Assembly (NCBI GenBank): GCA_004431415.1
Contig: QPMI01000405.1
Span: 1-35,141 of the forward strand
Origin: Cyanophora paradoxa CCMP329
Lineage: Eukaryota > Plantae > Glaucophyta
DNA: 35,141 nt
Direction of reading: 5' to 3'
Below are positions 1 through 34,706 of this stretch, one piece after another. Within the stretch, counting starts at the first letter, position 1. The number at the start of each line of letters is the position of its first letter. The notes beneath the pieces are model-generated. The model was not told the origin of the DNA, did not search any database, and was given only the letters and a program-made list of their open reading frames with translations. The position numbers and the translations under genes were made by a program.

Positions 1-85
1 CTAGAGCGATAACTTGGCACCGAGCGGGCGCAACTTGCGGCAACCTGCAGCTGGCACAGCCTAGGCCTGCAGCTGGCAGCAATCA

Positions 86-3000
86 ATGGTGCCCGCGCCT
101 GGACCACCATGGCCAGCGCAGGCGTGGGAGGCCAACCATATGCATCCCGCCGAGCGCGCGGGACCTGAGCTCGAGCCTGAGAAAAACGTGGACGATATCA
201 ATGAGCCCACTGCAGCGGTCGTCGAGCTCGGCCTCGACTCGGACGCAGCTGCGCATGCGCGCCGCTTGCAATTGACGAGGTCATCAACGCTGGTCATAGG
301 GCCGCCGGGATCCGGAGGCCGCAGCTGGTCATGGCGCGCGCGAGCGGCTGTGGAGTGACGCGGAGGCGGCGCCCGCCCCTGCGCTGGCCGCCGCGTGCGC
401 CGCTTTCTGCCCGCGGTGCGCCGCCGCGCGCGCCCCTCTTTGAGCAGACGACCGCGCCCGCCACCCGCTGACTGACGAAGACGCGGGCAGGCTGGTGCTG
501 GGGCACTGCCGCGGAAGACGGCTGCGTGAGACGTGCGAGGCAGTCGTGGCGCTGCTGGACCTGGCGGGCTTCTCCGACCTGGTCGCAAAGTGCAGCGCCG
601 GCGAGAGCGACATGGAGCAGCTCTTCGACGCCATCAACAGCTGCTTCCGCGCCGAGATCGAGCTTCTCGAGGGCCCGCCCCCGCCCCGCACGCCACGCCC
701 TACCCAGCCCCCACGGCCGATCGCGAGTGCCGGCGCCTAGGCCTGACGCGCCGGCAGAGTACGGAGCGGACGTCCTGTCCTTCCTTGGCGACGCCTCCTC
801 GCGATCTGGCCGGTCGAGCCGCACGTGGACGAGCCCGGGAGCACGGGCGCGCCCCTCGTCGGGGCAGTCGACGCCGGGACGGAGGGGGATGGCGACTCGG
901 AGGGGCGTCTCGCGGCGGCCCTGTCGCTGCGCGCCGCCACCGCCGCGAGTGCGCGCTGCGGGTGCGTTAACGTTCGATCCCGATCCCAGCCTAGCCGCGC
1001 GGCTCGCGATCGAGTGCTTTCGCGCGGCGCGGCCGACTTTAATTTCGAATTCATGTTAAAATTTTGAGTCGAATAGTGCTTTAATTACAATTTTCTCGAT
1101 AATTTCAGGAGTAATAGAGTTCATTTTCTCCTTGCGATAGACTTATGGAAAAGATATATCGTTGGGGCGCCGGCGGGTGCAGGTGCAGGAGCGGTTCGCG
1201 GCGGGGGTGGCGAGGGGCATGAGGCTGCGGTGGCCCTCTCCGCGGGGCCCCTGCGCCTCTGCGTCGGCGGCATCGGCGGCACCGCACTCGCCGAGAGCCG
1301 ACCCGCTTCCCGCACCTCCAAGCAGCCGGCGCCGGCGTCGTATCCGCATCTTTGGGCTCGGCCGCGGCCGCGGCGGCGGAGACTCGGAAGCGCCCTCAGG
1401 GGCCACCCTCCGCAACCCCGACGGGTCGGCCGTGCCCGGGTGCGCCTGCGACGCTGCCGCGGCCCTCAGCTGCTAGCGCTCCCGCTGAGCACGCGGGCGG
1501 CAGGCGGATGGTTTTCTTTGTGAAGGCGCGGCGGTGACAGAGGCTGGCGACGCCCTTGGCGACATCGCCCCGGGTCCGCAGGCCTAGGCCCTTCGCCCCC
1601 ACCTCGCCCCACCCCGGCCCACCCCGCCAGCGCCTGACGCGGCTCGGCTCCGGGCGGCAGGCAAGTCGTGCTCTGCCCCTCGATAATCGAGCACATCCCG
1701 CGGTCGGCGCTGCTGCCCGCTAACCGCAGCATGCGGCGCGAGACCGTGCGGCGAGAGGCACTGCAGCGCGAGCAGTCCTCTTCCCCACGACTCCCCGCTT
1801 GCGATCGCACAGCGGCGCCGACTCTGCGGGGGCGGCCGCGGCACTCGCACTCGCCCTCGTCGTCGGCCCGACGGCCGGCGCGCCCCTCGCCGACTACTGC
1901 CGCAACGTTTTGGGCGTCCCCTCCGGTCCGCGCCCCTTTCTTGCCGCCCCGGACGCACGCCGCGGCCGGCCTCCAGCCCGGGGCGGACTTTGACGGGGCG
2001 GCCGGGCAGGGAGCCTGGCGGGGCGGCTGCGGGAGGCGGCGCCGCCGCTGGAGACCCCCGAGCAGGTCGCCCTCGCATCCCTCTTCGTCCCCTACACGGC
2101 AAGCGCCGTTCCGGGATCCGCCGCTCGCGCCCCCGGACGAGCTTCGACTAAGGGGAGGCGCGGGGGCGCGCGCAGGTTCGGGCGCGGCTGAACCAGATCG
2201 CGAGCCTCGGGCCGTCGACCCCGCCCGCTACCTCGCCGAGTTCCGCCCGTGCGCCGTCCGAGCCGTCTGAGCGCTGCGCTGCGCCGCGCCGCGCCGCCCG
2301 CTGAGCTCGAGCGCGGGTCAGGTCTCGGTGCTCTTTGGCTCTCTCAAGATAGCGGTGGAGGAGGAGGGCGGGCCGGAGGGCGCCGCGCCGCGGGCCGTGC
2401 AGCGCGCCGTCCGGACGGTGCAGGCGCTGCTCTACGCACACCAGGGCTCCCTCCGCCAGATCGTCCTTGACGGTGCTGCCCCCGCCCCGAGCCTTATCTC
2501 GCCCGCAGCGACGCCTCTGCAGACAAGGGCCTCGTCGTGATCGGCGTCTTCGGGCTGTACCCCATCTCGCACGAGGGTGGGCCGGCACAGCCGCTCCGCT
2601 GCACTCCGATGCACAAAGGCCTCGTCTCATGCCCCCCCGCCCCACGCCCCCCGCCCCCAGACGACGCGGCGCGGAGCGCGCGTGTGCATTGGACGTGCGG
2701 GAGGCGATGGAGGCGGCCGGCGTCGCCTGCGCCATCGGCCTTGCCACGGGCCTCGCCTTCTGCGCCTTCGTCGGAGACCCCGCCACCCGCTGGTGCCCCG
2801 CTCTCTACAAACGTTCCCGCCCTACGCGCACACGAGTTGGCCGCGCAGCGAGTTCTCGTGTTCGGGAACGCGGTGAACCGGGCGGCGCGGCTCATGGGCA
2901 AGGCTGCCGTCTCCGGCGCCGGCGTCCTCGCCGATGGCGAGACCCGCGCCGCCGCGTGCGCCCCGCCCCCCCCCCCCGCCGACATCGCGCGCCGATCGCG

Positions 3001-6000
3001 GTCGACGCCGGTGAGCGGCGCAGGGGCAGCAGGTCGAGATGGATGCGGCGGGGGAGTACCACCTGAAGGGTATCCCGGGCCCCACGGCGGCGCACCGGCC
3101 GCTACGAGTGCGGGCGGGCTGCGGGGCAGACGCAGCCGGGCGCCCTCCATAGCCCTCGGGCAGGCGCCGGAGGTTCTCTACGGGCGCGAGGAGGAGCTCG
3201 CGTCCTCCGGGGGCTCCTCGAGGCCCACGCGGCCCCCCCGCCACCCCCCACGTGAACGCGCCTTCGCCGCCCCTCTCGCCCCTCGAGGATGGCCCGATCT
3301 GCCCTGGCCCCCAAGGCGCCGAAAGGGCCCGCTACGGCGCCGCGCCCGCCGTCGCTGGTGGTGGCTGCGGGGGACACGGGCCTCGGGAAGTCGGCGCTCG
3401 CGCGGGCGGCGGCGGGGATGGCGGCCGTCGGCTGGCGCGCCGCTGCCACCGCCGCGCTGTCGACGCAGCGCCAGCCGCTCGCCGCGTGGCGGCCCCTCCT
3501 CGCGGCCCTCTTCCCGCAGGGCATCCTCGAGGCGCGCCCGGCGGCCCCGCCCGCCTGCCGGGCATCCGCCCTTGCGTCCGTGCACGTGTGCGCGCTCCTC
3601 ATGGGTCGCAGGCGGGCCCGCTGGCGCTGGAGGACACGAGCCTGGACCCCGCCGTCGTGGCGGATCTCGAGGGCCTCCTCCCTCCCGCCCCGCCCCGAGC
3701 CCGCGCCGGCGCCATCGACATCGCTCCCCAAGCCCGTCTCCAGAAGGCGCCCTTCCCTGCACTGGATTCCAGCCTCCCCGCCCCTGCTGAGGACGCCGGA
3801 CCCCTCAGCCCGCCTTCCGAGGGGGCGCAACGCCGTACGATCGCGAATTTGAAGCGCGTCCGCGAGCGGCGAACGACGCGGCTTCAGCTCCCAGATGTGC
3901 CAGCGGAAGTGCGCGCGGCGCAGCTGCGGGCGGCCGTCGTGCGGCTCGTCCTCTCCCGCGCCACATCCCGGCGGCCCCTCCTCGTCGTCTTCGAGGGCGC
4001 GCCGCCCGTCCGACCGCGTCAGGCCCTGCCGCGCCTCACGCCGCCGCAGACGTGCACCTGGCGGACAGCCAGAGCCAGGCGGCGCTGCTGCGGCTCGCCG
4101 AAGAGGCGGCGGAGAGCCCCGCGACGCGCCTCCTGCTGCTCGTCACCTGTCGCCGGCCTGGCGGCGGGGCGGCGGCGGCGGAGCCGGACGGGGCGGACCT
4201 TTTGGCGAAGCTGGCCGCTGTGCCCGGACAGCGCTGGCTTGAGCTGCAGCCGCTGGACTGCGAGACGGTCGCGCGCCTCGCCTGCGCCCGCATCGGCGCC
4301 GCCTCGCTGCCCGCTGATGCCGCCACCTTCATTGGTCCGCCGCGGGGCGCAGAGGGCGCGCCGGGCGGCCGCAAAACCGCAGAGCCGCCTGACGGGTCTC
4401 GGGGCACTCGCAGCGAGCGAGTCGGGCGGGGTGCCTTTCATCGCGGCGGACCTGGCGGAGAGGCTGCGGGAGGAGGGGACCCTCTGCGTCGACACCGCGA
4501 CGGGTGCCTGCACCGTGGCGCGGCCGCTCCACAACCCGCGGCCCTCGGACGGCCTCCGCTCCGCCCTCCTCTGGCGCCTCGACCGCCTCGGCCCCTCGCA
4601 GCTCTTCACCGTCAAGGTCAAGGCTCCCCCCCCCCCCCCCCCCCCCCCCCCCTCCCCCCCCGCGCCGCCTGCCGACGCGCCCCGCATGCACAGCTCGCCA
4701 GCATCGTTGGCATGCGTTTCAGCGCCGAGGAGGTCGCCGCTAATGCTGTGGGCTTGGACCGAGGCCAGCGCTGACAGGGACGCGGCGGCAGGTGGCGGCC
4801 ATCTTGCCGCATCTGCAGGGCGGGAACGGCGTTCGGTCGGCGGAGGCGCTGCGGGCGGCGGCGAGGTCGCTCGCGGGGGATCTGGCGGCACTGTGCGGGG
4901 CGGGCATCTTGCGGGAGACGGTGTACGAGGCGGCCGCGGGCGAGACGTTCGAGTTCGCGCTGTCTCCCATGCGCGAGGTCGTGCACGGCCTCCTCCCCGT
5001 CGCCGAGCGCCGCCGCCTGCACCGCGCCTTCGCCCAGTTCCTCGAGGAGTGCGAGCGGGAGCTCGACGCGGCCAGCCGTGCGAGTGACGGCGCGACGGCG
5101 GGGCGGCCTTCATCGAGGCCGGCCGACGCTGAGGGCTCATCGTCCGGCCTGGACGGGGCGGCGGCTGAGCTGCTCGCGTACCACTGGACGGCGGCAGAGG
5201 AGCCGGGCCTGGCGCTGCCGTACCTCGAGCGCTGCGCAGCGGCCGCCCTCGACAGCTTCGCCAACTCTGAAGCCGAGCACATGTACAGCGACCTGCTCGC
5301 CCGGTACCCCGGCGCCTCGCCTTTCCGGCGCGCCGGCTGGCTCGCTGGCCTCGCCGAGGTGGGCAGCCGCACGGGCCGCTACCCCTCCGCCGTAAAGCAC
5401 TGCCGCGAGGCCCTCGCGCTCCTGGGCGTGCGGATCCCCTCGTGCGTTTTCCCCTGGATCTTGCCCTTGCCCTTGCCTTGCCATCTTTTCCCCCTTTGTC
5501 CTCCCTCCCCCCCCCCCCCCCCCTCTCTCATCTGAGGCGCCTCAGGAGCCGTCTGGGCGTCTGGGGGACGATCATGCTCATGGCGGTGCAGGCAAGGCTG
5601 CGGCCTCCGCCGAGCCTCGCCAACTCCTCACCCGAAAAGCTGGCCGCGCGCTGCGGCACACGAAGTTCAAGGCAGGAGGACGCTCGAGACGTCGCTATCG
5701 CAGACTTGTTCATGATTCTACGGCAAGCCACGGGGCACAGCGGGGACGGCGCCCTGTTCCTCTACAGCGCCTTCGGTCTCTGGCGCCACGCGCAGGATCC
5801 GGAGCGCAGCCCCGGGCCCCGCTACCTCGCCATCGCTTCCGCGCTGGTCGTGCGTGCCAATTATAAATATAGCTGCACATAGCCCTGCCAACTCTGCCCC
5901 GAACGCGTCTTGCAGGCCAGCAACATGACCTTTCTCTTTCCAAGGAACCGCTCCCTCGCCACTGCATACGCGAAGTTCGGCTTCGTAAGTCCATCCCCCT

Positions 6001-7999
6001 CCACTCCCTGCTTCCCCCCCCCTCTCCTCCCCCCTTCGCGCCCCTTGCCCTCCGCTGCACAAACTGATCGAGGGGTGCGCAGAAGCTCGGGAGTGACACG
6101 TGCACTGGGGCGTACGTCTCTCCGATGCACCGGGCCGTGTCAGTCGCGCTCTTTGCCGCCGGAGAGCACGAGGAGTGCAGCCGCGTCTGCGATCTCTACG
6201 CCGACGCTGCCCTGAGGATGGCGCGCCCCGCGCCGCGTCGCGGGCCCTCGAGCTCCACTCCGAATAGCACATCATCGCGCAGCGTACACTGACGCCCTGC
6301 GCCCTTCGCAGCACGTGCGGCGGGACGTGCTGGAAGCGTTTTCGTTCCGGTTTCTGTGCCACTTGCGGACAAGGGCTCGCCCGCCATCCTCGACCACATT
6401 GCATCCTGCATCCAGGCGCGCAAACATTAACCGCACTGCGGGTTTCGGCTTGTATATCTTTTTTGGCCCGACTAACACGCGCATTCTCGCGATCGACGTC
6501 GGCAGGCGGCGCTGGAAAAGACGGCGCGGGACCGCGAGCTCTCCAATGAGGTCATCACAGTCGTCTCCACGGTGAGCTGAAGGCCGCTGGGCCAGGCCAG
6601 GCCAGCTTTTCTAGGTCGACTGAAAAACGTGTCCTAATGTAACTGCACGAAAAATGTTTTCTAAAAACGAGACGCGCCCGCGGCAAATTTGCTCTAGATC
6701 TAGATCTGCTTCACTCCGCGCGCGAGCGAGCGTGCAATTTGCAAGCGAGCGTTTCTTGCCTGCTTACGCATCAACGCGTCGGCGGTCTTGGCAGGCGTCG
6801 CTGGTGTTCATTCGCCTCCTACAGGGCCGGGCGCGTGAGGCCCTCGAGGTGCGCCTTCAAATTCCCTCTCCTCCCCCGGCCCTTTTCTCGAGGGGGACGT
6901 CCTTCGAATTCGCGGGAGCTCACAGCGGCGCAGGTAGGGGAGGAGTTCTACCGCGCGCGTTTCAGCGGCGGCTTCGTTTCGGTGGCGGCTTTCAGCCGAG
7001 CGTTCTTCCTCGCCGGCCACTCCCGGGCGCTCCTTTCCGGCTTCGGGCCCCACGCGCCCGCCCCGGGCAGCGCCCTCTCCGCCGTCCAGGCAGGCCCGAA
7101 TATTAATGCTTCCCGAGCACTGCGACACGTTCTGTCACGCATTGAGCTCGAGTCCGCTGCAGGTTGCGCGGCAGGCCGTCGAGCTTCAAATCAGCGATCG
7201 CACCAATCTGGCCAAACTCATAGGGGTGCGCCCTCGCACCCTCTGGATCCCTCGACTTGCGCTGCGCACCCTCTTGATCCGTCGCTTATCGCTTGACCGA
7301 CATCCATGGCCAGCCCGACGTCGTGTGCGAGGCTGCGACGGTGCTCTTCGTCGCGTGGCTCGTGTCGGCCGCCCCCGCCGCGCGCTCGCACCCGGCGGCC
7401 CCCTTCGCCCGCCTCTACCCCCTGCCGGACGCCGCCTCTGCGCCGCCGGCGCCGGCGCCGGCGCCGGCGGTCGGCCCGGCGAGTTGGTCGCTCTCCTGGA
7501 TGCCGCCGCCCGCAACGGCACGCAATGGAACGAAGCGGTGCGTGCCTTTCGATTTTGTTTTAATTTCTCTACCCGCCCCCTCGCGGCGTCGACCGCGGCG
7601 CAGGCGGCGGGCGCCGCGGCGGTCCTGGAGGGCCTCGCTCTGAGCGCGCGCGGCGCGGTGCGGGCGGCGCGCGAGCGCTTCCTCGCGGCGGCCGCGCTGG
7701 GAGGCTGGACCGCCCCCGACCCGGCTCCGGCGCCGCGTCGCCCCCGCGACTGCGCCCTCGGGCTGCTCTTTGCGGCCTTCCACACGGGTGCCCCGCCGGC
7801 GCCTGGCCCGGCGCCGCCTGCCAGCACGGGGCCCGCGCCCAAGCCGCAAAGCCTGAGGCGTCTCGAGCGGGCCGAGCGGCCGGGGCCGGAGCTTCTGAAG
7901 GCAAGCCGGGCGGAGCTGCTGGCGGCGGCCGAGCGTTGCTTCGGGCTCTACAGCGACGCCATCGGTGGCCGCATAGCCCGCGAGGCCGCCCGTATCTAA
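86..7999 (+). CDS. Multi-exon soluble adenylyl cyclase-like protein (two class III nucleotide cyclase domains + STAND AAA NTPase + TPR-like region), host gene
   Basis: Exon pieces read in order: VVALLDLAGFSDL (~545) and YGADVLSFLGDA (~760) = cyclase C1 metal-binding Asp motifs; GSLRQIVLD/DKGLVVIGVFGL, AIGLATGLAFCAFVGD and FGNAVNRAARLM = cyclase C2; LYGREEELA, GDTGLGKS (Walker A), LLVVFE/VHLADSQS (Walker B), SGGVPF, RLDRL, ERRRLH and LLAYHW = ADCY10/STAND architecture. Short GT..CAG introns, e.g. 4335-4413 and 4617-4693, join these in frame. Exact start and exon boundaries are uncertain; stop TAA ends at 7999. Confidence 0.88.
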
Positions 8000-8703
8000 G
8001 CTTGCATTCAAATGATTGATTATGAGCGCACTGCGTCAACCGTTGAACTTCTAATTATTTTGGACGATCCCCACTTCTTCTCTATTTTTCAAGTCACTGC
8101 AGCTGGCATGGCTCAATTAATATTATCAAGTGCACCGTGGCGCAGCCTGGCAGGATGGATAGAGCACTGCGACATTTCTCGCGATTGAATCGTGAGATTA
8201 TTATCTAATATGCTTAAGCTTACAATGAAGACGCTCATGATCAACCCGATCGCGATCGATATCCCGACCGAGGCCTGCATGGCCCAGCGCTATCATAGTA
8301 TCGATATTCATATGAGTCCTGGAACTTGGAAGATATCACGATCATGGCTTCGCGCCGTCTTGGCCCGGCCGCGATTTTCGCGCCGGGGGTGCAAGGGGGC
8401 CCGGGGGAACCGGGATCTAATGAAAGAGTCCTAGTGGCACGCACATGCGCGCGGCAGAACGACCCCGGCCCAGTGCGCGCGGGAGGTCGAAGACTCGAAG
8501 TGTAAAGATAATCACAGATTATGATTGAAAAAATAGAAAAAGCCCGATAAGCACACGCTGCGATCAAGTCGATTAAAAAAAAGACTCAATGAAAGGCCAG
8601 ACTCAGCGCACACTATATCAAAGATTGTTCTGGAGCCAAAAAACGCTGTGCATCAACTCTGTTCGCACAGCCTACCGCTAATTATATAACCCTGAACAGC
8701 TGG

Positions 8704-9300
8704 CTAAAAGATGATGGTGCTGTCTGCAGATCTAGAGGGCTCGCCGTAAACATAGGCGATCCAGGCCTTCTGGAGGGGATCGGGGCGGAAGTCGACCTTG
8801 GGGATGAGCGGCAGCCAGCGGCGCCGGTCCTGAAGAGAGCCGTCTTGCAAGAGCATGGTGAGGCGGCCCGCCGCCTCGAGCGCCCGCAGAGCCGCGCGGC
8901 TGGCGCGCTGCTCGCACCCGCCGCGCATCTGGTAGACAAGGTCTTGAATTTCGACGTCCGCAAGGCTGGCGTCGCGCAGGCGCTCGACGACCCCCTCGTG
9001 GATCCGGAGGTCCTCGATCGCAGGCCTTCATCATGAACAGACATCAGCTATGGGCGATGCACTTCAATCAAACTGCGCGCACCCGACAAATTTAAAGCGA
9101 ACGACGAAGCGATCCTGCCGCCCAGCCGCGAGTGCGTCGACGGTCGCTAAAGCGAAGGCGACGGTTTGCTCGCGCATGGCCATGGGGGGGAAGCCAGCCC
9201 GGTCGGGGAGCTCGCGGACGAGGATGAGCAGCGCTAGCGGCTTCACCGCTTGCGCCGCACGCGCTCCGTCCGCGTTGCAATTGTTGAAATTGGCCGCGCT
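8704..9300 (-). pseudogene. Degraded coding remnant of unknown origin
   Basis: Protein-like segments (ALLILVRELPDRAGFPPMAMREQTVAFALATVDALAAG...; IQDLVYQMRGG...WLPLIPKVDFRPDPLQKAWIAYVYGE) are separated by in-frame stops. No family recognised. Confidence 0.3.
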
Positions 9301-9912
9301 CCGCGCGCGCGCAGCACGAGTGCCGGGCAGCGTGCTCGGCTGCGGGCAGCGGCGCGCGCCTCCGGTTCTGCGCATGCGGTGCAAGCTCGATGCAGTGAAA
9401 AGTAGTCCAGGCGGCACGGGTACCGTGCGGCGTACGGCGCAGTGCGAGGAAGCCGAAATCTAGATCTAGAGGAGACATGTACAGCTAGGGAGCTCGAGAA
9501 GTGCTTGCCAATGTTGCCATGCATATGCAAAACCGCCGCGTGACGCAGCGCACCGCCGCGCGAGCGAGAGGCTGCGCCGAGAGCCCAGATCTAGAGGAGT
9601 GATCATGAGAGCGAAGTTGGTTTTCCCCTCGAAAACCAGTTTTCGCGAGTTCGAGAGAGCTCTCGCGAGCTCGACTTTGACGCTCGAAAGTCGAAGGCTG
9701 ACCGGTCCACCGAGCCAATTTGCAATCCGATGATCGGAATGCGAATAAGCCCCTTTTTTCCCGTGTTGCATACTGGCCCTCGAGCTCGGAAACGGCCTCA
9801 TAGAAAAATTTTGGCTGAAGCGAGGGAACGGGAAGCAAGCTGGGAGAAGCCCTTCGGTCTTCTTCCCCCCTTGCAATCACGATCATGGCTTAGCTGGAGG
9901 GAGCGCTGGAAG

Positions 9913-10650
9913 ATGCAAATGGATCCGGAGCGCTGGAGGACGCTGTTGTTCGACTGGACGAATCTCTTCCATCGGGCAGCGAGATCGAGATCTAGAGGGC
10001 GAGGCGGGGTACGGAACGGAGTGGTGGCCATGGTTGCAAAATTAATTGCGCGTGCATACCCGGACCCCCTCGTCCTCGTCAGAGGAGAGGCGTCGGGGCA
10101 CGAGCGTTTCGAGGACCTTCCCGTCCTGCCCGTGGCGCGCTAAACCGGCGGCCCCGCGCTGGCGCCGCATGCCCAGGGGCGCGGCGGACCGCCGGCGTAC
10201 TTGTTGGGCGAGGCGCGCGAGGAGAGGCGCAGCACAAACGCGCCCGAATCCTGCTTCGAATTCGCTGTGGCCATCCTCTATATAGCTAGATCTGCTGCGC
10301 CGCCTGCGCGCGCGCAAGTCGGGCGGCCATGCCGGCCACACACGTACGGCCCGCGGGGGATGACCGGGGCGGGCGGGGCCGGGCACCTCAAATGTGAGGA
10401 GGGGGTCGCCGAGGCGGTCCGGGCCTTCCAGGAAGAGCCGTTCGAGCTGCGGTACCCCGCGGGCTCGGCCCCGGGGCCGGGGCGGGCAGGTTTTGCAGGA
10501 GTCGCGGCGCGCGGGGCGGGGACCTGCAGCTGGCGGTAGATCTAGATTTAATTGCGCGCGCGACGGGCACGAGCCAGAAGCTGAATGAGCGGAGCTGATC
10601 TGCCGTGTATACGTAGGACTCCTGCTGCGGAAGCTCCGCTGCAGACTCGC
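9913..10650 (+). pseudogene. Degraded coding remnant of unknown origin
   Basis: Collinear protein-like segments (MDPERWRTLLFDWTNLFH..., CFEFAVAILY..., EEGVAEAVRAFQEEPFELRYP) are interrupted by a stop at 10141-10143 and TAGATCTAG-type stretches. Confidence 0.28.
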
Positions 10651-10874
10651 AATCGGCACCGCGCCAACGTGGGTCCAGCAGTACTAGTTCCGGCAAGAAG
10701 CTCCGTGGCACGTGCACCGCACCGATATTGGTGGTGATGATCTAGCCTAGCTATATATATAGTAGAGGAATTCGGTGTACAGCTGGCACCCTTCTCCAAA
10801 TCCTATGGCCCCGCCCTCGAGCTCGTCTCAACCTCGTATACTAGCTCATTTAGCTACTAGTATATACTAATGTA

Positions 10875-11134
10875 CCGTGTAACAGGAAAATACCAGATCG
10901 GAAATTAGTGGATCGTAAAACTTGGCCCTTTCACCGGCGAAATACTGGAGCCCGAAATTAGTGGATCGTAAAACTTTCAGGCTTGTATGGGGCGGTAATT
11001 TGGGGGGTACTGTATGAGGCCGCGTCCCATAAGAGAATTAGTGGAGCTCGAAATTAGTGGACTGAGTCGAAAGTTTGGTCCACTATTTTCCGGCTCCACT
11101 AGTTATCAGCATCCAGTATTATCCTGTTACACGG
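10875..11134. mobile_element. MITE / non-autonomous Tc1-mariner-type DNA transposon (260 bp)
   Basis: TIRs CCGTGTAACAGGAAAATACCAGAT versus reverse complement CCGTGTAACAGGATAATACTGGAT (21/24). TA on both sides (10873-74, 11135-36). Internal repeats of GAAATTAGTGGA(TCGTAAAACTT). No ORF. Confidence 0.85.
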
Positions 11135-11646
11135 TAGGCTAGCTCAGCCTAGCGCCGGCTAGCGGGCCAGTAGTAGCGGCCTGGTGGGACAGGTGGCAGG
11201 TCTGGGACTCTGGGCGCGGGCAATTAACCCCGGGCATTTCGGCTGTGACGGCGACGTCGATAAGCTGTCAGCCCGAGCATGCATATGATAAAAAAAGCCG
11301 GTACGAAATTACGGGTACGTGATCATGAAGCCCCTAAGCGCGGTTCGCACCCTTCGGCTTCACGATAAGTGGTCGTCGGATCCGGAGGCTGTCGCGATCG
11401 GACGCTCCGAGTAGCTCCAAAGAGGAGGACGGTTCTTAAAACACGGGGTACCGAGTTTCCGCTGGGGCGGTGCCGCGGCGCCGCCCGAAGCTTAAGAAGG
11501 CCCTTATAATTACTAGTAGAGTCTGCCAGGCTTGAGGCTTAGAGCCTTAGACCTGCGCGGCTTATATATAATATCAATTAAGCTTGCACTGCGGCCGGGC
11601 AGGCAAGCCCTTGACCCAAGCCCTTGAGCCGGGCTGAGAATTTGTT

Positions 11647-11946
11647 AAAACGCGGTAATTTGGTGCCGCGGGAATACTGTAAGCAGCTTATTATAAGCTG
11701 CAGCCAAGTTGCTCCATACAGACTGATGATACAGTACCCGGTGACCCCCACAATCATTGAATTACCGCCCCACACAACTTGTGAAACAAGCCTCAAGTTT
11801 TCTAAAACGCGGTAATTTGGTACCGCGGTATTCGGCGCCGCGGCGCGGTTGCGGTTACAATGCGGTATAATTCTAACGCGGTAATTTATGTACGTGTTGC
11901 CGGCGTAACTTGCCGCAGTGCGGTAATTCTAATTCCCGTGACGGTA
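11647..11946. repeat. Degenerate MITE-like remnant with repeated AACGCGGTAATTT motifs
   Basis: AAAACGCGGTAATTTGGT(G/A)CCGCGG at 11647 and 11804, shorter copies near 11875 and 11920. It ends in ...GACGG-TA like the right end of the 10875 element, but no matching left terminus was found. Confidence 0.45.
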
Positions 11947-12061
11947 GTAGTAGCCTAGGCTCAGTACTACTAGTACTGAGTCAGTACTACTGACTCAGTA
12001 GTGCGCCTCCCGGAGACTCCGTAGACTGAACCGTAGTCCGGGTTCGTAATAACTTCGTATA

Positions 12062-12299
12062 CTGTAAACGTACTAATATCCGCCAGCACTTTAATTCGAC
12101 AAAACCCGAAAATCCTGTCGAAAATTAGTCCGCCAGCGTCTTGATTTCGACACCCTGCGACTTCGCCATAGAGAGGTCAGCCGCTGGTACCCCTCTCTCC
12201 ATACAAAGGCTTAATTCGCCAGCGTCAAATATTCGACAGCGCGAGGGTCTGGCGAATATAGTCGAAATTAAACGCTGGCGGAAATTCGTACGTTTACAG
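12062..12299. mobile_element. MITE / non-autonomous Tc1-mariner-type DNA transposon (238 bp)
   Basis: TIRs CTGTAAACGTACTAATATCCGCCAGC versus reverse complement CTGTAAACGTACGAATTTCCGCCAGC (24/26). TA flanks at 12060-61 and 12300-01. Internal CGCCAGC...TTCGAC subterminal repeats. Confidence 0.85.
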
Positions 12300-13492
12300 T
12301 ATGTATTACCGTAGTACCTACTACCGTAGTACTAGGCTACTATTAGTAGTAAACGCTGGTGCCACAGTGCCACTGGGCCAGATCTCTGGTGGCCGTCGCC
12401 GACTTTGCCAAGTTGCACGTGGGATTCTCACGCAAGTTAAGATCTACTGCAGTAGAAGGCCTCGCCGAGTCGCGCGGCTCCCGGAGTCCGAGGCTCGCGC
12501 CGCGGGCCCGCGGCGCCCGGCGGCAAGCTCTAGATCTGCAAATTTCCGAGTTCGGCTGCGGCGTTTTAGATCTCAGAGTTTAGATCTTCTCCAGCGTGTA
12601 CGTAACGATGGCGGCCGTATTGGCTAGCGGCTCCACTGCAAGTGCGTGAATTCGCGCCCGCACTGCGGCGCGTGCGGTCGTCCGACGTTGACGTTCAACG
12701 GCTGTCGCGCCTCGAGATCGTATTCGCGTATACGTAGCGTGTCGTATTTACGCATGCGCACGAGCTGATCATAATTTTCGACCCCCATTGCGCAGCCTAC
12801 CCCGTCAACTGCTACTCGCAGACAGGATGCGCGGGCAGCGCAATGTCGTTCGGGAGTGGAGTATCGAGCGTCAACTGCAGCGGTAGACTGTGCGCCAAGA
12901 ACACATGCAGGGATCTCAGCGGAGCGAAATCCGTCATGTTCAACGGCAGCTGCACGAACCTCTCACTCGACGCCGAGACACAGGCGAGCACCCGATGATC
13001 CGCCGCGGGGCGGGGCGGGGCGGCGCCGGCGCGGGCGCCGGCTCAGCCAGCCGCGGCCGGCCCGTCCACGCGCGCGCGGAGCCGGGCCGGGCCGGCCGCG
13101 GGCATCATGCATATATATGAGGGCCAACAATGGGCCAAACGCGAAAAGTCAACCCCGAGAGCTCGAGACTCGGAAGTGACGCTTGGATTGCGGAGGTTCT
13201 TATAACCTCCGGGTCACAGCTGGGGGGTACCGTAGACGAGGCTGGTGATCACCATGATCGCGACGATCGCGATGACGATTCCGATCACGACGATCGCGAA
13301 AACGAGACGATCGCGACCATTTTCGATCGCGATTTCGGGGAGGGGGTCCATTTTGGGCCGGGGTAGAGAAAATAAATGCGAAAAGGCCGAAAAGTGCGTT
13401 TTTCACGCGTGAAATCGATCGAAAACGAGGGTTCGAATCCCGGGTCCGGATTTGGACTTGGGCAAAATCTCGAGTCAAAATGGGAGAAAAAT

Positions 13493-15545: not shown

Positions 15546-15607
15546 CCTGGGACTTGGGACTTGGGACTTGGGACTTGGGACTTGGGACTTGGGACTTGGG
15601 AAGAGTT
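15546..15607 (+). repeat. Telomere-like heptamer array 2: CCT + (GGGACTT)7 + GGGAAGAGTT
   Basis: Seven perfect units at 15549-15597 with the same immediate flanks as array 1. Confidence 0.97.
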
Positions 15608-15887
15608 AGACTCAGGGTCTGGGCCCAGACTTTCTCTGGATCTGAGAGTTTGCCGTGCCAAGTCCCTAACCACCGGGCAGACTTAGAAAGGGGTACGGAA
15701 ATTTGGATACGACGTTTCTGGTGACATTCCAGGTGAGATTTCAAGCGAGGTAGAGTCTGAACTGGTGTACGACTTGTAGCATGATACTGGACATGAAAGC
15801 TCACGAGAGTATGCAACCGAAAAAGGATGTGAAGAGGGGTAGGAGTATTCGTGCGAGATGTCGAGAGAAGGAGGGTACGAGATGGGA

Positions 15888-15945
15888 TACGAGTAAAAAA
15901 GACTACGAGTAAAAAAGAGTACGAGGGGTGGTAGGAGTAAAAAAG
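15888..15945 (+). repeat. Short tandem repeats TACGAGTAAAAAAGA(C/G) in a purine-rich non-coding spacer
   Basis: Two 16-bp units at 15888-15919, a partial TACGAG at 15920 and GAGTAAAAAAG at 15935. Confidence 0.8.
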
Positions 15946-16020
15946 TCGGTAGAAAAACTCACCTGACTTGTCTGACAAATTTCTGATCCTGGAGAAAGTC
16001 TGGGCCGGGACCTGGGTTTC

Positions 16021-16068
16021 AACTCTTCCCAAGTCCCAAGTCCCAAGTCCCAAGTCCCAAGTCCCAGG
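16021..16068 (-). repeat. Telomere-like heptamer array 3 (inverted): CCT + (GGGACTT)5 + GGGAAGAGTT
   Basis: Five AAGTCCC units at 16031-16065 on the + strand, flanked by AACTCTTCCC and AGG. Confidence 0.97.
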
Positions 16069-16089
16069 TTTTTCTGAACCTAGGGCAAA

Positions 16090-16455
16090 ATGGCCCTGCT
16101 CCGGTGCACCGACTCGCAAGACGTCGCCTACAACGTCCTGGTCAACTCGGACGTACCCCCGAGTGCCTTGGAGTTTCCCTGGAGAGTGGACAGGGACAGG
16201 GTGAGCAAGACGTTTGGAGGGCGCAAGCACTACCTCTCCCAACTGATCCTCGGGAAGTCGCCACGTGGACGCTACGTGGAACACATCAACGGCAACCCGC
16301 TGGACTACAGGAGGGAGAACCTGCGCTGGGCATCAATGTCGGATATTCGCAAGAAGAGGAGGGGGTACGCCAATTTACAGGAGAAGAGCGAGGAGATTCG
16401 GGAGATGATGGAGGCGGCACAGGCGCTAATGCAGCTTAGCCAGTCTAGACGCTAG
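16090..16455 (+). CDS. HNH endonuclease-fold protein (HNH_3-like), possibly catalytically degenerate
   Basis: YLSQLILG...YVEHINGNPLDYRRENLRW matches the phage/NCLDV pattern xxHRxxxG...VDHINGxxLDNRxxNLR. Start context TTTTTCTGAACCTAGGGCAAAATG. Confidence 0.8.
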   Translation: MALLRCTDSQDVAYNVLVNSDVPPSALEFPWRVDRDRVSKTFGGRKHYLSQLILGKSPRGRYVEHINGNPLDYRRENLRWASMSDIRKKRRGYANLQEKSEEIREMMEAAQALMQLSQSRR

Positions 16456-20135: not shown

Positions 20136-20155
20136 TTATTCCTAGTTGTTCCAGA

Positions 20156-21220
20156 TCAGCTCGCCAGTGCCGCTACCTGGTCTTTGAGAGTTTGAACTTC
20201 TTGTGAAAGTTCCTGAATTGCCTTCAACGACAGGGAAATGAGCCTGTCGTAGTTTACCCCGAGAAATCCATCCGCGTTCTCGAAAACGAGACTCGGGAAG
20301 ACGCCTTGGACTTCCTGTGCGATGAGACCGTAATCCGTTTTCGAACCCCCGAGGATGTGTTCTTCCAGGTGAACGACACGGGATTCAGCTGCAGCAGAAG
20401 AGGGAGAATGCCCGACATGCTCGCGACATTTTCTTTCAGGCGGCTATCGCTCGACGAGTTTGTCAGGTATCCTTGAGCATCCGAATAAACGGCTCGGTTT
20501 CCATCGCCCGTGAGCGTCGAGACGATGAGCCGACCCGTGATGCCAACGCCGACGGTTCCGCACAGCAGTCGTTCGGTGCCGTTGTTTCTCAAGGATAGAC
20601 CAGAGCTGACGCTGACGCTTCCGCTATCAACGATTGAAGTGTTTGCTATGCTTAGGCCATTAGTAGGGCCTTCGATTGCCGAGGTAAATAGAGTACCTGT
20701 AACACCAACGCCAAGAGTCCCACAGAGGAGTCTATCGTTTTCGTTGTACTTTATAGCTACGCCTGAACCACCGCCATTTATGTACGGTGACGTTCCGGTA
20801 ATTTGCAGCTTATCGTCCAATGTAACGATGCCCGCCAAGTTTGAAGCCCCGCTCACCCTAAGCCCCCCACCACGTTTGCTCCGCCTCCTTGCACATACAG
20901 AGCCGCATTCCCCTCCCCGTTCACAGTCCCATTAAAGGTCACCTGATTCGTGGTGTACCCGCTCCCGTCCCAGGCCCCGTTCGTGACGGTGAGCCTCTGC
21001 GTCCTCACGCGCCCCGGCACGGCCGACCCGCCCTCCCGCGTGCGCATCTTGTCGCAGCGCAGCTCGCCGACGCGGACGAGGTCGGCCTCGGAAAAGGGGA
21101 CGGCCGTGGCGTTGTAGGGGCCTCGGTGGCCTGGTTTCCGAGGGTGGTCTCCTTAATCGTGTGATCGCCCTTGTGATTCACGCTGGCAGCATAGGTAAAT
21201 AGAGGGACAGCGACCGACAT
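20156..21220 (-). CDS. Tail-fibre-like protein with C-terminal intramolecular chaperone (Peptidase S74 domain); frameshifted
   Basis: SSDSRLKENV...LLQLNPVSFTWK, then in a shifted frame YGLIAQEVQGVFPSLV...GVNYDRLISLSLKAIQEL, the canonical S74 motif set. The upstream region has RLLCGTxGVGxTG repeats. Confidence 0.85.
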
Positions 21221-21244
21221 TTTTGGATTGCATCAGAAAATCGA

Positions 21245-28196: not shown

Positions 28197-30225
28197 TTAT
28201 CCGCTACCCCTTCCCCTTCCGCGCCCCTTGCCTTTGCCGCGCCCTCGGCCCCTGGCCCTCAGGTCGCCGATTTCCGCGGCCTGCGGCGCGAAGCGGGGAT
28301 CGTCCGCCTGGCCGGCGTCCGCCTGGAAAATCGTGAAGAGGTACCCGTCCGTGTTGTTGTCGGTGTTGTTCGTGTTTCGCGCGTGCGACCACTCTTTCAG
28401 TAAATCGCGCCTCTGCTTGTCGGGCAGCGTCTTTGAGAGGTACTCCTGCAGCTTGCTCGCGTAATTTTCCTCTGGGATCAGCGACGCAAGGACGGTGGGC
28501 GGATCTTTCCCCATGCCTATCTTCTCTTCCGTCAGCATGCGCTCGAGCTCTGCGATTTCCACCATCGTATCGATGCTCGGTTGAGGCCCTGCCTCTGCCC
28601 TCTTCTGGTCTACGAGGCGCTGCCCCGCCGCCGTGAATTTCGCGGACAGAATTTGGTGCAGCCGCTCGTACACCGTCGTGGTGCTCGGCTCCTTCTCCTT
28701 CAGCAGCACCACCCAGTCGTAATTCGCCCACAGCACCTGCAAATTCGATATGTGATCGATCGTCACCAGCACGTGGGCGTGCAGCGCGCCGTCCGTCGGC
28801 CCCACCTCCACGCCCCCTTGCACGCGAATTCCGATGATTGCGTTGGCGTACGTGTCGTCCTTGTACTTGCCGTTCTCTTCCTTCATATTGAAGCGTATGA
28901 ACTTGTAGAATTCTGCATCCGAGAGCACCTCTGCGAGGCTGTCGCGCAGCGCCGCCGCCTCGAATTCTCGCGCCTCTCCCAGGCGCTTGTGGGTGTTGAA
29001 GAGCACCCAGTAGCGCGACTGGCGCGCCTGTCGTATGTCGTACCGCGTGCTTCCGTCGGGATTCTTTTTGTTGAGGATGAAGACCGACCGCCCCGTCTCG
29101 CTGATTTCCGTGATCACCTTCTCGAGCGCCTCCAGCCCGTTTGCCTGCGCCGCCTGCAGTCCCGTTTTCGCCTTCTCTATGTTCTGCTTTACCTCTTGCG
29201 CGTCCGCGAAGGTTGCCATTAAATCTTCCATGCTCGGCGCCACGATTTTCGCCTTTCTGATTTTCGACTGCGCAGAGTTGGGCTCGATGACGGACGATCC
29301 GAAGTCAGCGGCCGTATCCTTTGCCTTTTTCGTGGTCTTTGGCTTCGGCCCGCCGAGCACGCTCTCGACCATGTGGTCGCGCGTCTGCTTGGAGACGGTG
29401 GCCGTGTCGCCCCTCTTTCGCCTCTGCAGGCCCAAGATCACGAGCAGGCCCTTGTTGCCGAGCAGCGTGACGCACTTCTGGCAGAGCCACGAGTTTCTGG
29501 GCGACACCGTGGGCACCTGCGCCGGCTTCTTGTCCTTGATGAGGGGTACGGCTCCTGGCCCTTTTTCTTTCCCTTGCCGTTTTGCTTGGCCGCCCACGCG
29601 TTTGCCTTCTCTATGACCGCGACGTACTCTTCGTACACGGCATCCTTCCTCGCCTGCGCTGCCTCCCTCGCGGCGATTTTCTCTGGCGTGTTGGCCCCCT
29701 TGGCGCTCGGCACGGGCGTGGCTTCGTACATGAGGCGAAGGCAGCGGTAGCAGATTGGCGGCGATTTCTGCGCGCTCTGGTACGTGCGCGGTATGGCGCG
29801 CAGTCGCTCCTCGGGGAGTTTATCGTACTCGATTTCGCTGTGGATGCTCCAGAGGGTCGCGGGCTCGTGGTATGATTTATCGAGCAGCGATGGGAGCATC
29901 TGAACTTCTTTGGTGGCCGAGAGCTTGATGTAATCGGATATGCTCTTCTGCTGCTGGAATATGCCGTCCTCGCCCTGAACCAGCACGTATCGCTTCGGAA
30001 TCTCAACGACGGGCGTCTCGAGCTCGTCCACGCCGGTATCGGGCGCGTTTCCCTTTGCCTTTCCCTTTCCCTTCCCCTTGCCCTTGCCCTTCGGCTTAGG
30101 CTCCGGCTCCTCTTCCTCTTCCTCCTCTTCTTCCTCCGACTCGGAGGACGGGACGTGGGCTCCTCTTCCTCTGACTCGCTCGAGCTCTCTGGCTTCTTCT
30201 TGCGGCCTCGGCGCTTCGGAGGCAT
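28197..30225 (-). CDS. Long HUH endonuclease (rolling-circle Rep-like) with N-terminal charged region and CxxC pairs; frameshifted
   Basis: Motif I-like SRYWVLFNTHK, motif II GVEVGPTDGALHAHVLVTIDH, motif III-like LQEYLSK. CYRC and CQKC upstream. ORFs 29611-30225, 29438-30031 and 28197-29597 chain together. Confidence 0.8.
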
Positions 30226-30246
30226 TTATTGGACACGAGAAAAAAT

Positions 30247-31087
30247 TTACACGAGCTTTACAGCGCCCGTCTCGAGGGCCTCTACCGTCTTCGTAATGTA
30301 CAGCTGCAGCAGATCCTTAAGGTTGCTCTGCGGCAGCAATTTTACGTCTACGTGCATCTGCCTGGCGGTTTCTCGCTTCCTGTAGCCCGTCTCCTTGCCC
30401 GTCCACTGCATGCCGAGGGCGTCCTTTCTCCGTATCGGCCGCACCGCCGTCTTCTGGTACTCCTCCCCGAACCAGTCGTCCTTGTAGAAATTCGGCAGGC
30501 CGCCCTGCCCTCCGTTTGCATGAACTTGATGAGGAAATCCGACGCCTTCTTGCCGTCGAATTGCACGCGCGAGTAGTGCACCAGCGTGAGCAGGATGTGC
30601 GCGTGGAGCCGCCCCGACCGCGGCCCGTACTCGATGCCGATGTTCGCGTTGCCCTTCTCCACGTGCGTGTCGTACTGGTCGGACTTGAAATCGAAGCCCT
30701 TGGGGTTCGCCTTGTCGGGGTACACCCCATCTTTATGCACCGCGCCAGCTGCCTGTCGTCGTAGAAGAGGGCCTCCAGCCCCCTGTGAAACGCGTCCTGC
30801 ACCTTGGAGCCCTCTCCCCTGCTCCGCGGCTTGTAGTTGGTCTGGATGGTGATCATGAAATTCGACTCGCGCTGCGGCCGATCCTCCCCGTTCAGTTTCC
30901 TCACGGGCGCCGCGTCCAGCACCTTCTGGAACCACGTCTTGTCGGGCGCCAGCACCTTGTCGTTGATGTTGCCCACCACGATGTGCGTCTCTACCCGGGA
31001 GCGGCCGGAGGCGTCCATGCGGAGGTGAGGGTTCGGTGCCCGGGCTTGCCTGTTTGCTGCCACGCCCCTCGCGATGAGGTTGAGCAT
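30247..31087 (-). CDS. HUH endonuclease (rolling-circle Rep-like); frameshifted
   Basis: Motif I SNFMITIQTN, motif II GIEYGPRSGRLHAHILLTLVH, motif III LLQLYITK, spread over three chained frames. Confidence 0.85.
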
Positions 31088-31317: not shown

Positions 31318-32146
31318 ATGGCAGACTCTAACGAAATCGATCTCCTCCTCCGAAACTTCGAGCAGATCCAGCGCTACGGCGCCATCCTTCACGACGAGGG
31401 GGACCCAGACTTCGACACTCCGGCACCGTACCCCGCCGCCGCCGCCGCCATCGCCAACTCCTACCTCGGGGCCGGAGAGCGCCCCCGCAAGCGCAACCGC
31501 CGCACCCAAGGCCCCCAAGGCGAAGCCGCTGTCCCCTGCGGAAATTGCAGCTCTACCGCCCTCGTTGGTGTTCACCTGGATGGGGATCTGGTTTGCCAAG
31601 GCTGCGGTCTGGTCCTGGATCTTTATTATCCGGACCATCAACCCTGGCTGTCAGCGAGCTCCACAGCAACTACCTGCGCAAGTACCACGTTTCCGAGCGA
31701 CTTAAGCAGCACTGCCTGGAGGATTCTCCGGTACCCGAGGACGTGCTGGCAGCTATTGCGAGGCGCATGGCGGGAAGGAGTGGAGCAAAGACAATATCCG
31801 CCAAGTTCTCCGGGCTCTGAAGCAGCAGAAGTACATCGAGCGCTGGGCGCAGATCAAGTGGCGCATCACGGGCGAGCGCCCGCCTCCGATGAGCGCGGAG
31901 GACATGGACCGGGTGCAGGAGATGTTCGCCCTGGTGGAGGTCCCCTTCAGCATGTTCAAGTCGCAGGGCAGGAAGAACATGCTCAACTACAATTACGTTT
32001 TCAGGCAGATTTTCGTGCTGCTGGATTTGCCCCAGCACCTCCCCTTTTTCCCCTTGCTCAAGAGCAGGCAGAAACTCTCGGAGTTAGATTCGATTTGGAA
32101 CAGGATCTGCGAGTACAACGACTGGCATTTCTTTCCTACTCTTTAG
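31318..32146 (+). CDS. Viral late transcription factor 3 (VLTF3, poxvirus A2-like); frameshifted
   Basis: N-terminal Zn ribbon CGNC...DGDLVCQGCGLV, then YLRKYHVSERL and LKQQKYIERWAQI, and the hallmark C-terminus RKNMLNYNYVFRQIFVLLD...FPLLKSRQKLSELDSIWNRICEYNDWHFFPT. Confidence 0.93.
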
Positions 32147-32491
32147 CTACTCTTTAGTGATCGCGGCGGCCTTCCGCTCGAGCGCCTGCTTGATTCCGAA
32201 GCTGGCGCTGGTAGCCTTGATTAGCATGTTCGTCTGCCCGTGTGTGAATCCGAGGATGAACATAATTCCGCCGGTGGGGTCGTCGTCGAAGAACTTGAGG
32301 GTGAGCACGTATTTCGAGAGCAGGCCGAGGGAGAGGCCGTTGACGGCGACTTGCGCGGCGAGCTCGGCTGCGTGGCCCGCCCTGTTTTCGCCTTCGTGCG
32401 AGGAGAAGGCGGCGTCGATGAGGGAGCCGGATGCCAGGCCGAGGGCGTACTGCACGATAGCCTGGGAGAGCCCTAGGAGCACCTTTGACAT
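32147..32491 (-). CDS. Putative virion membrane/envelope protein (114 aa)
   Basis: Three hydrophobic segments with E...Q and GG..F...F..Q..L..K patterns reminiscent of small NCLDV membrane proteins. Confidence 0.6.
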   Translation of the reverse strand: MSKVLLGLSQAIVQYALGLASGSLIDAAFSSHEGENRAGHAAELAAQVAVNGLSLGLLSKYVLTLKFFDDDPTGGIMFILGFTHGQTNMLIKATSASFGIKQALERKAAAITKE

Positions 32492-32902: not shown

Positions 32903-33972
32903 TCAGGCGAGGCCGCGGTGCTTCCTGAAATTATCTATCATGCCGAGGAGCGTCTTGTCCACCGTGCCGTCGTCCGGACCCACGAGATTTTCTCCGTTGA
33001 CGGTTTCGCCCTCCCAGTACTCCTTGGATCCGATGCGGAAGGGGGCGGCTCCTCGGCCTTGTAGACGTACAAAACGTCCAGAGGGTTCGTAGAGTTGTTG
33101 GAAGAATCGATGATAAGGCAGTGGTTATCCTGCGTGTACTTATCGAGCAGGTAGTAGAAGGCGCGCTGGGAGATGATGTCGCCCCACTCCTTTGCGAGGG
33201 CCTCGCGCTGCATCGCCTGCGAGCACTTGAAAATGACAGCCAGATCAGTATTGGAGCGCAGGACGGGATTGATGCCCTTGGCATACTGCGTCGTGATAAG
33301 GGTCATGATTTTGTAGTGGCGCCCCGCCACGAAGAGCTCGTTGAGGGCCTCGTCGTACCGCAGCCGAGCGTCGGAAATCACGTCGTCGAGCAGCACGAAA
33401 AATCGCGGGTCGACGGGATCCTCCTTTCCCGCGAGCACGTCTTCGGACTTGTTGTGCTGCATGATCGCCTGCTGCCTCCTGAATAAATGGAAGAGCACGC
33501 CCGGGTTGTACTTGGGCCAGATGAAGCGCTGCGGGATGTACTGCTTCCAGTAGCCGTTCAGGCGATCGGTCTGGCTGATCACGATACCCCCCGGGAAGGT
33601 GCCGGAGAGGTTGAACATGAGATCGCGGAGGAAGAAGGACTTGCCCGTGCGCCGCTTGCCGACGCAGACGACCGTGGCGTCGGACTTGACGGTGTTCACG
33701 TCGAACCACTTGAGCTCGGGCAGGCAGGCCATGCGCTCGATGCCTCCCGTCTTCGAGTTGTCGAGGAAGGCGTTGACCTGCTCGGGCGTGAGCTGCTGGC
33801 CGTCCTCTGTCATGCCCATGGCGCAGCTGGCGCCGGCGGCGGGGGCCGTGCCCGAGCCCGTGCCGGTGGCCTGGCCGGCGGGGGCGGGGGCCGCGGGCGC
33901 TGCGCCTGCGGGCTGGGCGGGCTGGGGCTTGGCCGCCTTCGGCTTCTTCGGCTTCTTGGGGTCCTTGGCCAT
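32903..33972 (-). CDS. A32-like (FtsK-HerA family) genome packaging ATPase; one C-terminal frameshift
   Basis: Walker A VGKRRTGKS, Walker B FVLLDDV, GRHY arginine motif, LITTQY, LRSNTD, and in the shifted frame PFRIGSKEYW, typical of NCLDV/PLV A32 ATPases. Confidence 0.95.
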
Positions 33973-34230: not shown

Positions 34231-34706
34231 ATGAAGATCCTCGGCGTGGATGTGGGGGTCATCAATTTCGCATGGTGCCTCATCGAATTCGATCCGCAGA
34301 CAAAGGAATCCCAGATTCTCGACTGGCAGAAGATCGCCCTCTTCCCGTCTGCGCGCTGCTGTGGCCGCCTGGTTGCGCGCCTGGTGGAGGTTACTCGCGG
34401 CCATAGCGCCTTCGGCCTTCCCGACCAGATCGCGATCGAGGGCCAGAGGACGGGAATCAATCGCTGCATCGAGTGCACGCTCCACGCCCTGCTGTACGGG
34501 CGTGCGCGGATCGTGAGCCGCGCGCCATCAAGCACTTCTTCAAGATCTCGAACCCGAGCTACAAGGAGCGCAAGCGGGGCGCCGTGGACAAGTGCCGCGA
34601 CCTCGTACCCGCCGAGCTCGCCGACATCGCGGATCGAAACGGCAAGCTCGACGACCTCTGCGACGCCTACTTAATCGCCCTCTACGCCGCGCTCAATCCG
34701 TTGTGA
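34231..34706 (+). CDS. RuvC-like Holliday junction resolvase (poxvirus A22-like); one frameshift near 34520
   Basis: MKILGVDVGVINFAWC, IAIEGQ, YKERKRGAV and KLDDLCDAYLIA: all RuvC/A22 catalytic motifs are present. Confidence 0.92.

Follow-up and report, generated by a model that had tools for sequence, protein, structure and literature searches.

Mriyavirus genomes are described as 35–45 kb long and without PolB or RNA polymerase (PMC11253617), and a short HUH endonuclease accompanied by a long one (HUH_long) is the published hallmark of the 'Gamadviridae' (Yutin et al. 2024, PMC11253617). The same source infers a role in replication for the mriyavirus HUH protein, gives SIRV1 ORF119 as its best structural match and terms the N-terminal region of HUH_long uncharacterized, and its main text never uses the words 'integrase', 'integrated' or 'endogenous'. 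Genes for integration are reported as notably absent in mriyaviruses and common in neighbouring groups (10.64898/2026.06.19.733378), where the Zora, VC218 and VC134 groups often carry RVE or YR, some alongside HUH, and no integrase appears in the published annotation of three Phaeocystis endogenous relatives (Supplementary Data 9). Nucleocytoviricota insertions without mobility genes have been read as mainly accidental (10.1101/2025.04.19.649669), and in the literature available to us, some of it in part, we met no suggestion that mriyaviruses integrate by means of HUH enzymes.

Methylated giant-virus-like endogenous regions have been reported in Cyanophora paradoxa (PMC12344493), and Mriyaviricetes regions in a glaucophyte (Glaucocystophyceae) assembly (10.1101/2025.04.19.649669); the available part of the latter source gives no copy number, ends, HUH annotation or integration mechanism for these regions, which may belong to the same family as the element described here. 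PMC10120064 mentions neither Cyanophora, glaucophytes nor yaravirus, and according to the available text of PMC10288648 glaucophytes yielded no Replitron proteins. We analysed a window of 35,141 nt (C. paradoxa CCMP329, contig QPMI01000405.1, positions 1 to 35,141) that carries a pair of HUH genes. The short HUH and HUH_long pair is itself already known from mriyaviruses, and how mriyaviruses that lack an integrase enter algal chromosomes is the main question that the locus raises.

A tandem pair of HUH endonuclease genes

Six-frame translation placed a short and a long HUH gene head to tail on the minus strand, with a spacing of 21 nt:

31087-30247, minus: short HUH endonuclease gene (mriyavirus HUH)
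30862-30836, minus: motif I of the short gene, NFMITIQTN
30638-30597, minus: G-x-E-x-G-P-x-x-G-x-L-H-A-H stretch of the short gene, GIEYGPRSGRLHAH
30303-30286, minus: tyrosine motif of the short gene, YITK
30225-28197, minus: long HUH gene (compact HUH_long)
29752-29741 and 29483-29472, minus: CxxC motifs of the long gene
29015-28989, minus: motif I of the long gene, RYWVLFNTH
28814-28773, minus: G-x-E-x-G-P-x-x-G-x-L-H-A-H stretch of the long gene, GVEVGPTDGALHAH
28445-28428, minus: tyrosine motif of the long gene, YLSK

A first-pass annotation, made from the letters alone, had described motif I, G.E.GP..G.LHAH and YxxK in both adjacent genes, and CxxC pairs and charged tracts in the longer one. 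Translation, the coordinates above and a shuffle control (two instances of the strict HUH motif in the window, none in 100 codon shuffles) confirmed this description. The long protein has a charged (acidic/basic) N-terminus, two CxxC pairs, a C-terminal HUH domain and an RG-rich tail. YASK was considered as motif III of the long gene and rejected, a second subfamily being without it; the conserved motif is YLSK, just downstream. Both genes are frameshifted twice in the window, the short one near 30730 and 30500 and the long one near 30145 and 29545, and intact copies, of 280/285 aa for the short protein and 657–676 aa for the long, are found among the EukProt Cyanophora paradoxa gene models. 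The assignment of both products as HUH proteins and as paralogs of one another, also proposed at first pass, is supported by their alignment (27% identity across 107 aa, E 1e-8), by invariant residues and by the predicted fold.

The surrounding element

The HUH pair lies among further genes of viral type:

16090..16455, plus: HNH endonuclease gene inside the element (Pfam HNH_3 E 3e-7; PHROG HNH families)
31318..32146, plus: VLTF3-like late transcription factor with an N-terminal zinc ribbon, frameshifted (Pfam Pox_VLTF3 E 2e-23)
32938..33972, minus: A32-like genome-packaging ATPase (Pfam Pox_A32)
34231..34706, plus: RuvC/A22-like Holliday-junction resolvase, frameshifted (Pfam Ydc2-catalyt E 3.6e-5)

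The VLTF3-like protein is 45% identical to an IMG/VR relative, the ATPase shares 47–53% identity with its counterparts on 29 IMG/VR contigs, and the resolvase matches a protein of locus L001 (BLASTP E 5e-10) whose cluster hits Pox_A22. The presence of VLTF3, A32 ATPase and RuvC/A22 genes near the HUH pair identifies the element as a mriyavirus and supports the provirus context assumed at first pass. Features of Mriyaviricetes found here are thus an HUH endonuclease with motifs I–III and the set of VLTF3, A32 packaging ATPase and RuvC-like resolvase, and the 'Gamadviridae' combination of a short HUH with a HUH_long whose HUH domain is C-terminal is also present. An NCLDV-like double jelly-roll MCP, a helicase, VLTF2 and a PDDEXK nuclease had no match in the visible 22 kb of an element that exceeds the window; its unseen part would be at least 13 kb if the genome has the published length of 35–45 kb.

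The ORF clusters of the 29 ATPase-related IMG/VR contigs include an NCLDV-type MCP, Pox_A22, YqaJ and VLTF3. When 339 ORFs from 26 related loci were compared by tblastn with the window, which is divergent, frameshifted and partial, only the HUH genes, VLTF3 and the ATPase matched, and the search thus brought up none of the family-specific 'Gamadviridae' genes PEV_8, 12, 14, 15, 20, 26, 27, 34 and 35. In a tree built without Yaraviridae or PEV references, the window ATPase sits at the end of a long branch and falls outside the 30 environmental relatives included, a placement from which the element appears to be a divergent member or a sister of Gamadviridae. Elsewhere in the element, fibronectin-III/glycine-rich and tail-fibre-like genes at 18001-22009, one with a Peptidase_S74 chaperone domain (Pfam, PHROGs), likely encode virion fibre or receptor-binding proteins. 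A small hydrophobic gene at 32147-32491 is convergent with VLTF3 and positioned as in L001 (possible Mriya_50), its product giving no BLASTP alignment with the L001 counterpart; no homologue was found for the leftmost viral ORF.

Conservation of the pair in environmental viruses

Residues E158, G160, H167, H169, H176, Y269 and K272 of the short HUH are invariant across 65 aligned short relatives, and Y596/K599 of the long YLSK motif across 50 aligned relatives, and no row among the 65 short and the 50 mixed ones departs from the catalytic E, G, H, H, H, Y and K; the rows of both alignments were picked mostly by the HUH motif and not by Y or K. An HUH profile search over 1.84 billion representatives returned 500 matches at E <= 0.001, and the best 150 of these comprise short HUHs, proteins of 1,000–1,900 aa whose HUH domain is C-terminal, and a small number of proteins of 611–724 aa. 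At least two CxxC motifs occur in all 29 HUH_long relatives of at least 1000 aa (P0042-P0182), often in the pattern C-x-R-C-x-R followed by N-x-C-x-x-C, and those of the compact forms align with them; from this conservation, the two motifs likely constitute a split zinc site. A SAP DNA-binding domain was also seen in one HUH_long (locus L039:3681-9344).

Twelve IMG/VR loci were taken for gene order, three of which end too early to judge. Among the nine assessable contigs, five have the short gene followed by the long with a gap of 23–32 nt, and the other four have the short HUH alone within ~10 kb downstream; some relatives may therefore replicate without the long gene, which would leave it open to a different function. 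The mriyavirus-like loci with a short HUH only are L033, L036, L040 and L041, and two such contigs (L006/L041 and L007/L036) fall in a separate ATPase subgroup. In a quick tree of 141 HUH domains, from which fragmentary or redundant host models and motif-less rows were left out, the short gene clusters among short HUHs, and the long gene joins the 611–724-aa relatives (SH-aLRT 94), this compact clade adjoining canonical HUH_long with an SH-aLRT of 89, which is below the starred mark.

DNA scans of IMG/VR and JGI contigs with the long protein or the short-gene alignment found no close relatives. Two environmental short/long relatives, P0043/P0047 and P0045/P0070, have longest contigs of equal length (8181 and 4240 nt, respectively) and are for that reason probably on the same contigs, and the compact short gene paired with a 611–613-aa long one may thus occur outside Cyanophora paradoxa. 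Since the pair is found in environmental viral contigs and is a printed Gamadviridae hallmark, its duplication is best seen as an old feature of the virus group and not as a sign of provirus life. The first-pass annotation had reasoned from two HUH genes and no integrase to one of them acting as integrase or resolvase; the duplication, being common to environmental viruses, lends that step no support.

Predicted structures

Structure prediction, which had been proposed for both proteins, gave an HUH-like model of the long protein with alignment Z-scores below 8 and failed for the short one, whose model, built from five sequences, has a mean pLDDT of 39 and is unusable. The intact long protein's model reaches a mean pLDDT of 62.5, with values of about 80–95 at residues 381–500 and mostly below 50 in the N-terminal third. 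Its top VIA-align row is SIRV1 ORF119 (Z 6.8, rmsd 3.0, 101 residues aligned), tied with Thg1, which has an unrelated fold, and the next rows are bocavirus NS1 (Z 6.0), a REP tyrosine transposase (5.8) and AAV5 Rep (5.5), with geminivirus Rep and a Helitron transposase also among them. All Z-scores of the long model being below 8, it fits an HUH fold that does not distinguish an initiator from a transposase. Foldseek returned no match at E <= 0.001 against the PDB and one strong match, to an unnamed protein, against BFVD (A0A2H4YB87_2, E 4.6e-10); a PDB sequence search gave nothing significant, and the N-terminal region of the long protein had no usable match in the ESM Atlas.

Copies in the genome and the left boundary

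The closest proteins to both products are EukProt Cyanophora paradoxa gene models, up to 98–100% identical. Short or long HUH models occur on 36 contigs (EukProt contig names), although some small contigs may be assembly redundancy and several models are error-rich fragments, and the tandem pair occurs on 17 of them, with consecutive gene numbers on 16 and consecutive accessions on the 17th. The genome probably holds 20 or more near-identical copies of the element. Intact long copies form two subfamilies, 99.5–99.7% identical within type A, 96–99.5% within the other and 67–70% between them, the divergence being concentrated in residues 61–340 (57% identical) as against residues 341–500 (88%), whereas 11 short copies are 93–100% identical to each other. 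On contigs tig00021137 and tig00021586 the short gene of one type adjoins the long gene of the other subfamily, and such mixed pairs point to recombination between viral variants or copies.

Short-read unitigs were mapped over 5000-13450, and the ratios of unitig depth given below are a rough proxy and not a copy number. The two regions defined were:

1..13110, no strand: host flank, GC-rich (mostly 69–77% up to 8 kb), followed by a mosaic of single-copy pieces and short high-copy repeats
13111..13178, no strand: inferred left boundary of the element, where unitig depth passes from single-copy to about 20–25-fold

In run X1 a unique unitig at 12272-13140 with a depth of 72 is followed by a unitig at 13178-13388 with a depth of 1544 and 0 differences, and in run X6 the depth inside the boundary is 2488 vs about 92–104 in the flank. 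The flank keeps a single-copy depth (72–84 in X1, 92–104 in X6) up to 13140, and from the 31-mers used and the unitig end at 13140 the shared sequence should begin near 13111. At least one contig among the loose ends listed, a 2658-nt contig of run X15, joins at exactly 13111 with different letters before it. The step at 13111-13178 agrees with the first-pass estimate, which put ~22 kb between the left end and the right edge of the window, and fits a defined element end; the window copy could also be truncated at 13111 while other copies continue leftwards, and a natural linear-genome end captured by host repair would yield an identical depth step. The stretch at the left end is tied to the virus by its position, its youth and a similar multiple only.

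The virus is located in a repeat-rich region, the host sequence at 8100-13100 being a mix of single-copy stretches and short, diverged repeats of very high copy number; it includes perfect hairpins (11955-12010) and an inverted repeat of 42 nt (12059-12302). No hairpin stands out at the left end itself (z -1.0 to +0.3 for 100-nt windows over 13101-13400), and the z of -3.0 for a 301-nt left-end fold is due to an internal palindrome cluster; short palindromic repeats forming stacked hairpins lie at 13250-13345, 140–230 nt inside the boundary. Within 15548-16455, two 7-mer tandem arrays in inverted orientation surround ~350 nt with A-rich 16-nt repeats directly before the HNH gene, a candidate origin region, and a third 7-mer array lies closer to the left end. 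An 18-nt left-end pattern was discarded as chance (none of its 8 matches in metagenomes reached further than 20 nt), and a scan with the 7-mer array unit led to two unrelated tailed-phage contigs without HUH, from which nothing follows.

It seems very unlikely that host processes multiplied the copies from one or two initial insertions, by segmental duplication or by recombination via the short tandem arrays or viral RuvC/YqaJ-type enzymes, or that the copies are in part assembly redundancy. The mixed-type pairs do indicate that copies or their parent viruses recombine, the 7-mer arrays lie within the left part of the element and would suit such exchange, and the error-rich fragments among the gene models are in keeping with redundancy. 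However, the flank is single-copy right up to the step and was therefore not duplicated along with the element, the two long-gene subfamilies differ by about 30%, and the multiple in short-read depth is of the same order as the contig count.

Search for an integrase

No tyrosine recombinase or rve domain was found by Pfam in 137 stop-to-stop frames from 8.2 kb to the window end, nearly all of at least 100 aa and with sensitivity reduced by frameshifts; the same scan detected VLTF3, the A32 ATPase, Ydc2/RuvC and HNH. PHROGs likewise gave no integrase in 42 selected window frames, and both results agree with the first-pass observation that the visible 22 kb hold no tyrosine recombinase or retroviral-type integrase. 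YR and rve were also absent from G001, a 39.6-kb relative carrying the HUH pair (in that search control profiles matched in 14/14 and 8/14 genomes), and from a set of 106 ORFs (98 cluster representatives and 8 long ORFs) that covers 26 related loci. The RuvC/A22-type gene at 34231-34706 had been overlooked at first pass, and with a Holliday-junction resolvase of the element's own 3 kb away the suggested resolvase role of an HUH paralog is weakened.

A tyrosine recombinase or rve encoded beyond the visible 22 kb, or supplied in trans by a different element, is in our view distinctly unlikely. The MCP and helicase are missing from the window in the same way, so that a large part of the genome lies outside it, RVE or YR is frequent in Zora, VC218 and VC134, in some cases together with HUH (10.64898/2026.06.19.733378), and a lineage as divergent as the long ATPase branch implies need not obey the mriyavirus rule. 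Against this, the same source reports such genes as notably absent in mriyaviruses, and none was present in any relative tested.

A dedicated single-tyrosine (Y1) HUH integrase, in which the short HUH would start replication and HUH_long, or the pair, would join a defined viral end to host DNA, is rather unlikely, though several observations suit it: the lack of a canonical integrase in the 22 kb, in G001, in the related loci and in the Phaeocystis annotation; the many young copies; the depth step within 67 nt together with a second context joining at 13111; the HUH transposases among the structural neighbours of the long model; and a long paralog that diverges between subfamilies (57% in 61–340) much faster than the short one (93–100%). 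Yet the pair is retained in environmental viral contigs, any HUH fold resembles initiators and transposases alike, the left end has no stand-out terminal hairpin (z -1.0 to +0.3, 13101-13400), and a single junction was seen at sequence level.

The HUH pair as a likely replication module

On balance we lean towards reading the HUH pair as serving viral DNA replication, and towards insertion without a dedicated integrase, as a side effect when host repair joins nicked replication intermediates to chromosomes. Both proteins are predicted to be single-tyrosine nickases. Following the published model, the short protein would nick the origin and thereby start rolling-circle replication by host polymerase in the nucleus; the long protein, which has a faster-evolving, predicted zinc-binding N-terminal part, would serve as a second nicking and rejoining subunit that recognises the origin or a genome end and closes or resolves unit-length genomes. 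A genome end freed by nicking would occasionally be joined to host DNA.

This reading draws on the motifs, the shuffle control, the paralogy and the invariant catalytic residues, on the same tandem pair in 5/9 assessable environmental viral contigs and on the absence of YR or rve from G001 and from 106 ORFs of 26 related loci. It is also consistent with the predicted HUH-like fold of the long protein and with the tree, which suggests that the short gene belongs with the short HUHs and the long gene beside canonical HUH_long. Weighing against it are the VIA Z-scores, all below 8 with the top row tied to an unrelated fold, the 4/9 assessable contigs that show a short HUH alone within ~10 kb downstream, and, as regards insertion as a by-product, at least 20 young copies (long type A 99.5–99.7%), which exceed the usual rare accident, and a single-copy flank beside a 20–25-fold step within 67 nt, which suits an enzyme-defined end.

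Comparison with known systems

Consecutive short and long C-terminal-HUH genes are described for Pleurochrysis endemic virus 2 (genes 11 and 10, 'Gamadviridae', PMC11253617), as in the window, and the element shares with the 'Gamadviridae' HUH pair intact motifs I–III in both HUH domains, with the group VLTF3, A32 ATPase and RuvC in one genome, and SIRV1 ORF119 as best structural match. It differs in its long protein, 676 aa vs 1,000–1,900 aa in most relatives among the best 150 of 500, in an ATPase whose long branch falls outside 30 environmental relatives, in matching the 339 ORFs of 26 loci at HUH, VLTF3 and ATPase only, and in its host, a glaucophyte. New here are the near-identical models on 36 contigs, the left depth step, the compact 676-aa long form and the conserved CxxC pairs. 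The latter offer an initial way into the part of HUH_long that has been called its 'uncharacterized N-terminal region', and a protein of 676 aa is far easier to express than the 1,000–1,900-aa forms.

Endogenous mriyaviruses embedded in algal genomes, as here, are described for NDDV Phaglo-G (10.1101/2022.07.28.501842), which has short tandem repeats at its flanks, and for PaeNCLDV/PgeNCLDV (PMC12480563) in Phaeocystis. A young family, probably of at least 20 copies, with a sharp left boundary in a cultured alga makes integration testable through its junctions. Integrating PLVs and the Zora, VC218 and VC134 groups resemble the present element as small dsDNA genomes with an A32 ATPase, and some Zora and VC218 members also encode HUH, but these groups often carry RVE or YR (10.64898/2026.06.19.733378), none of which occurs in the visible 22 kb here.

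The motif of the pair, HUH with a catalytic tyrosine, is shared with IS200/IS605, IS91, Helitrons and Replitrons (PMC10288648), whose chemistry is capable of strand transfer, and in the long protein it is placed on a predicted HUH fold (Z < 8). HUH transposases mobilise small capsid-less elements or ssDNA genomes, unlike the present element. AAV Rep-mediated integration is another instance of HUH strand-transfer chemistry. Should HUH_long prove to be a zinc-binding Y1 enzyme dedicated to integration, linking a fixed end of the viral genome with host DNA, which we consider rather unlikely, the glaucophyte family of at least 20 young copies would be a natural record of HUH integration, and mriyaviruses would stand apart from these systems as capsid-encoding dsDNA giant-virus relatives with HUH chemistry as their sole means of both replication and integration.
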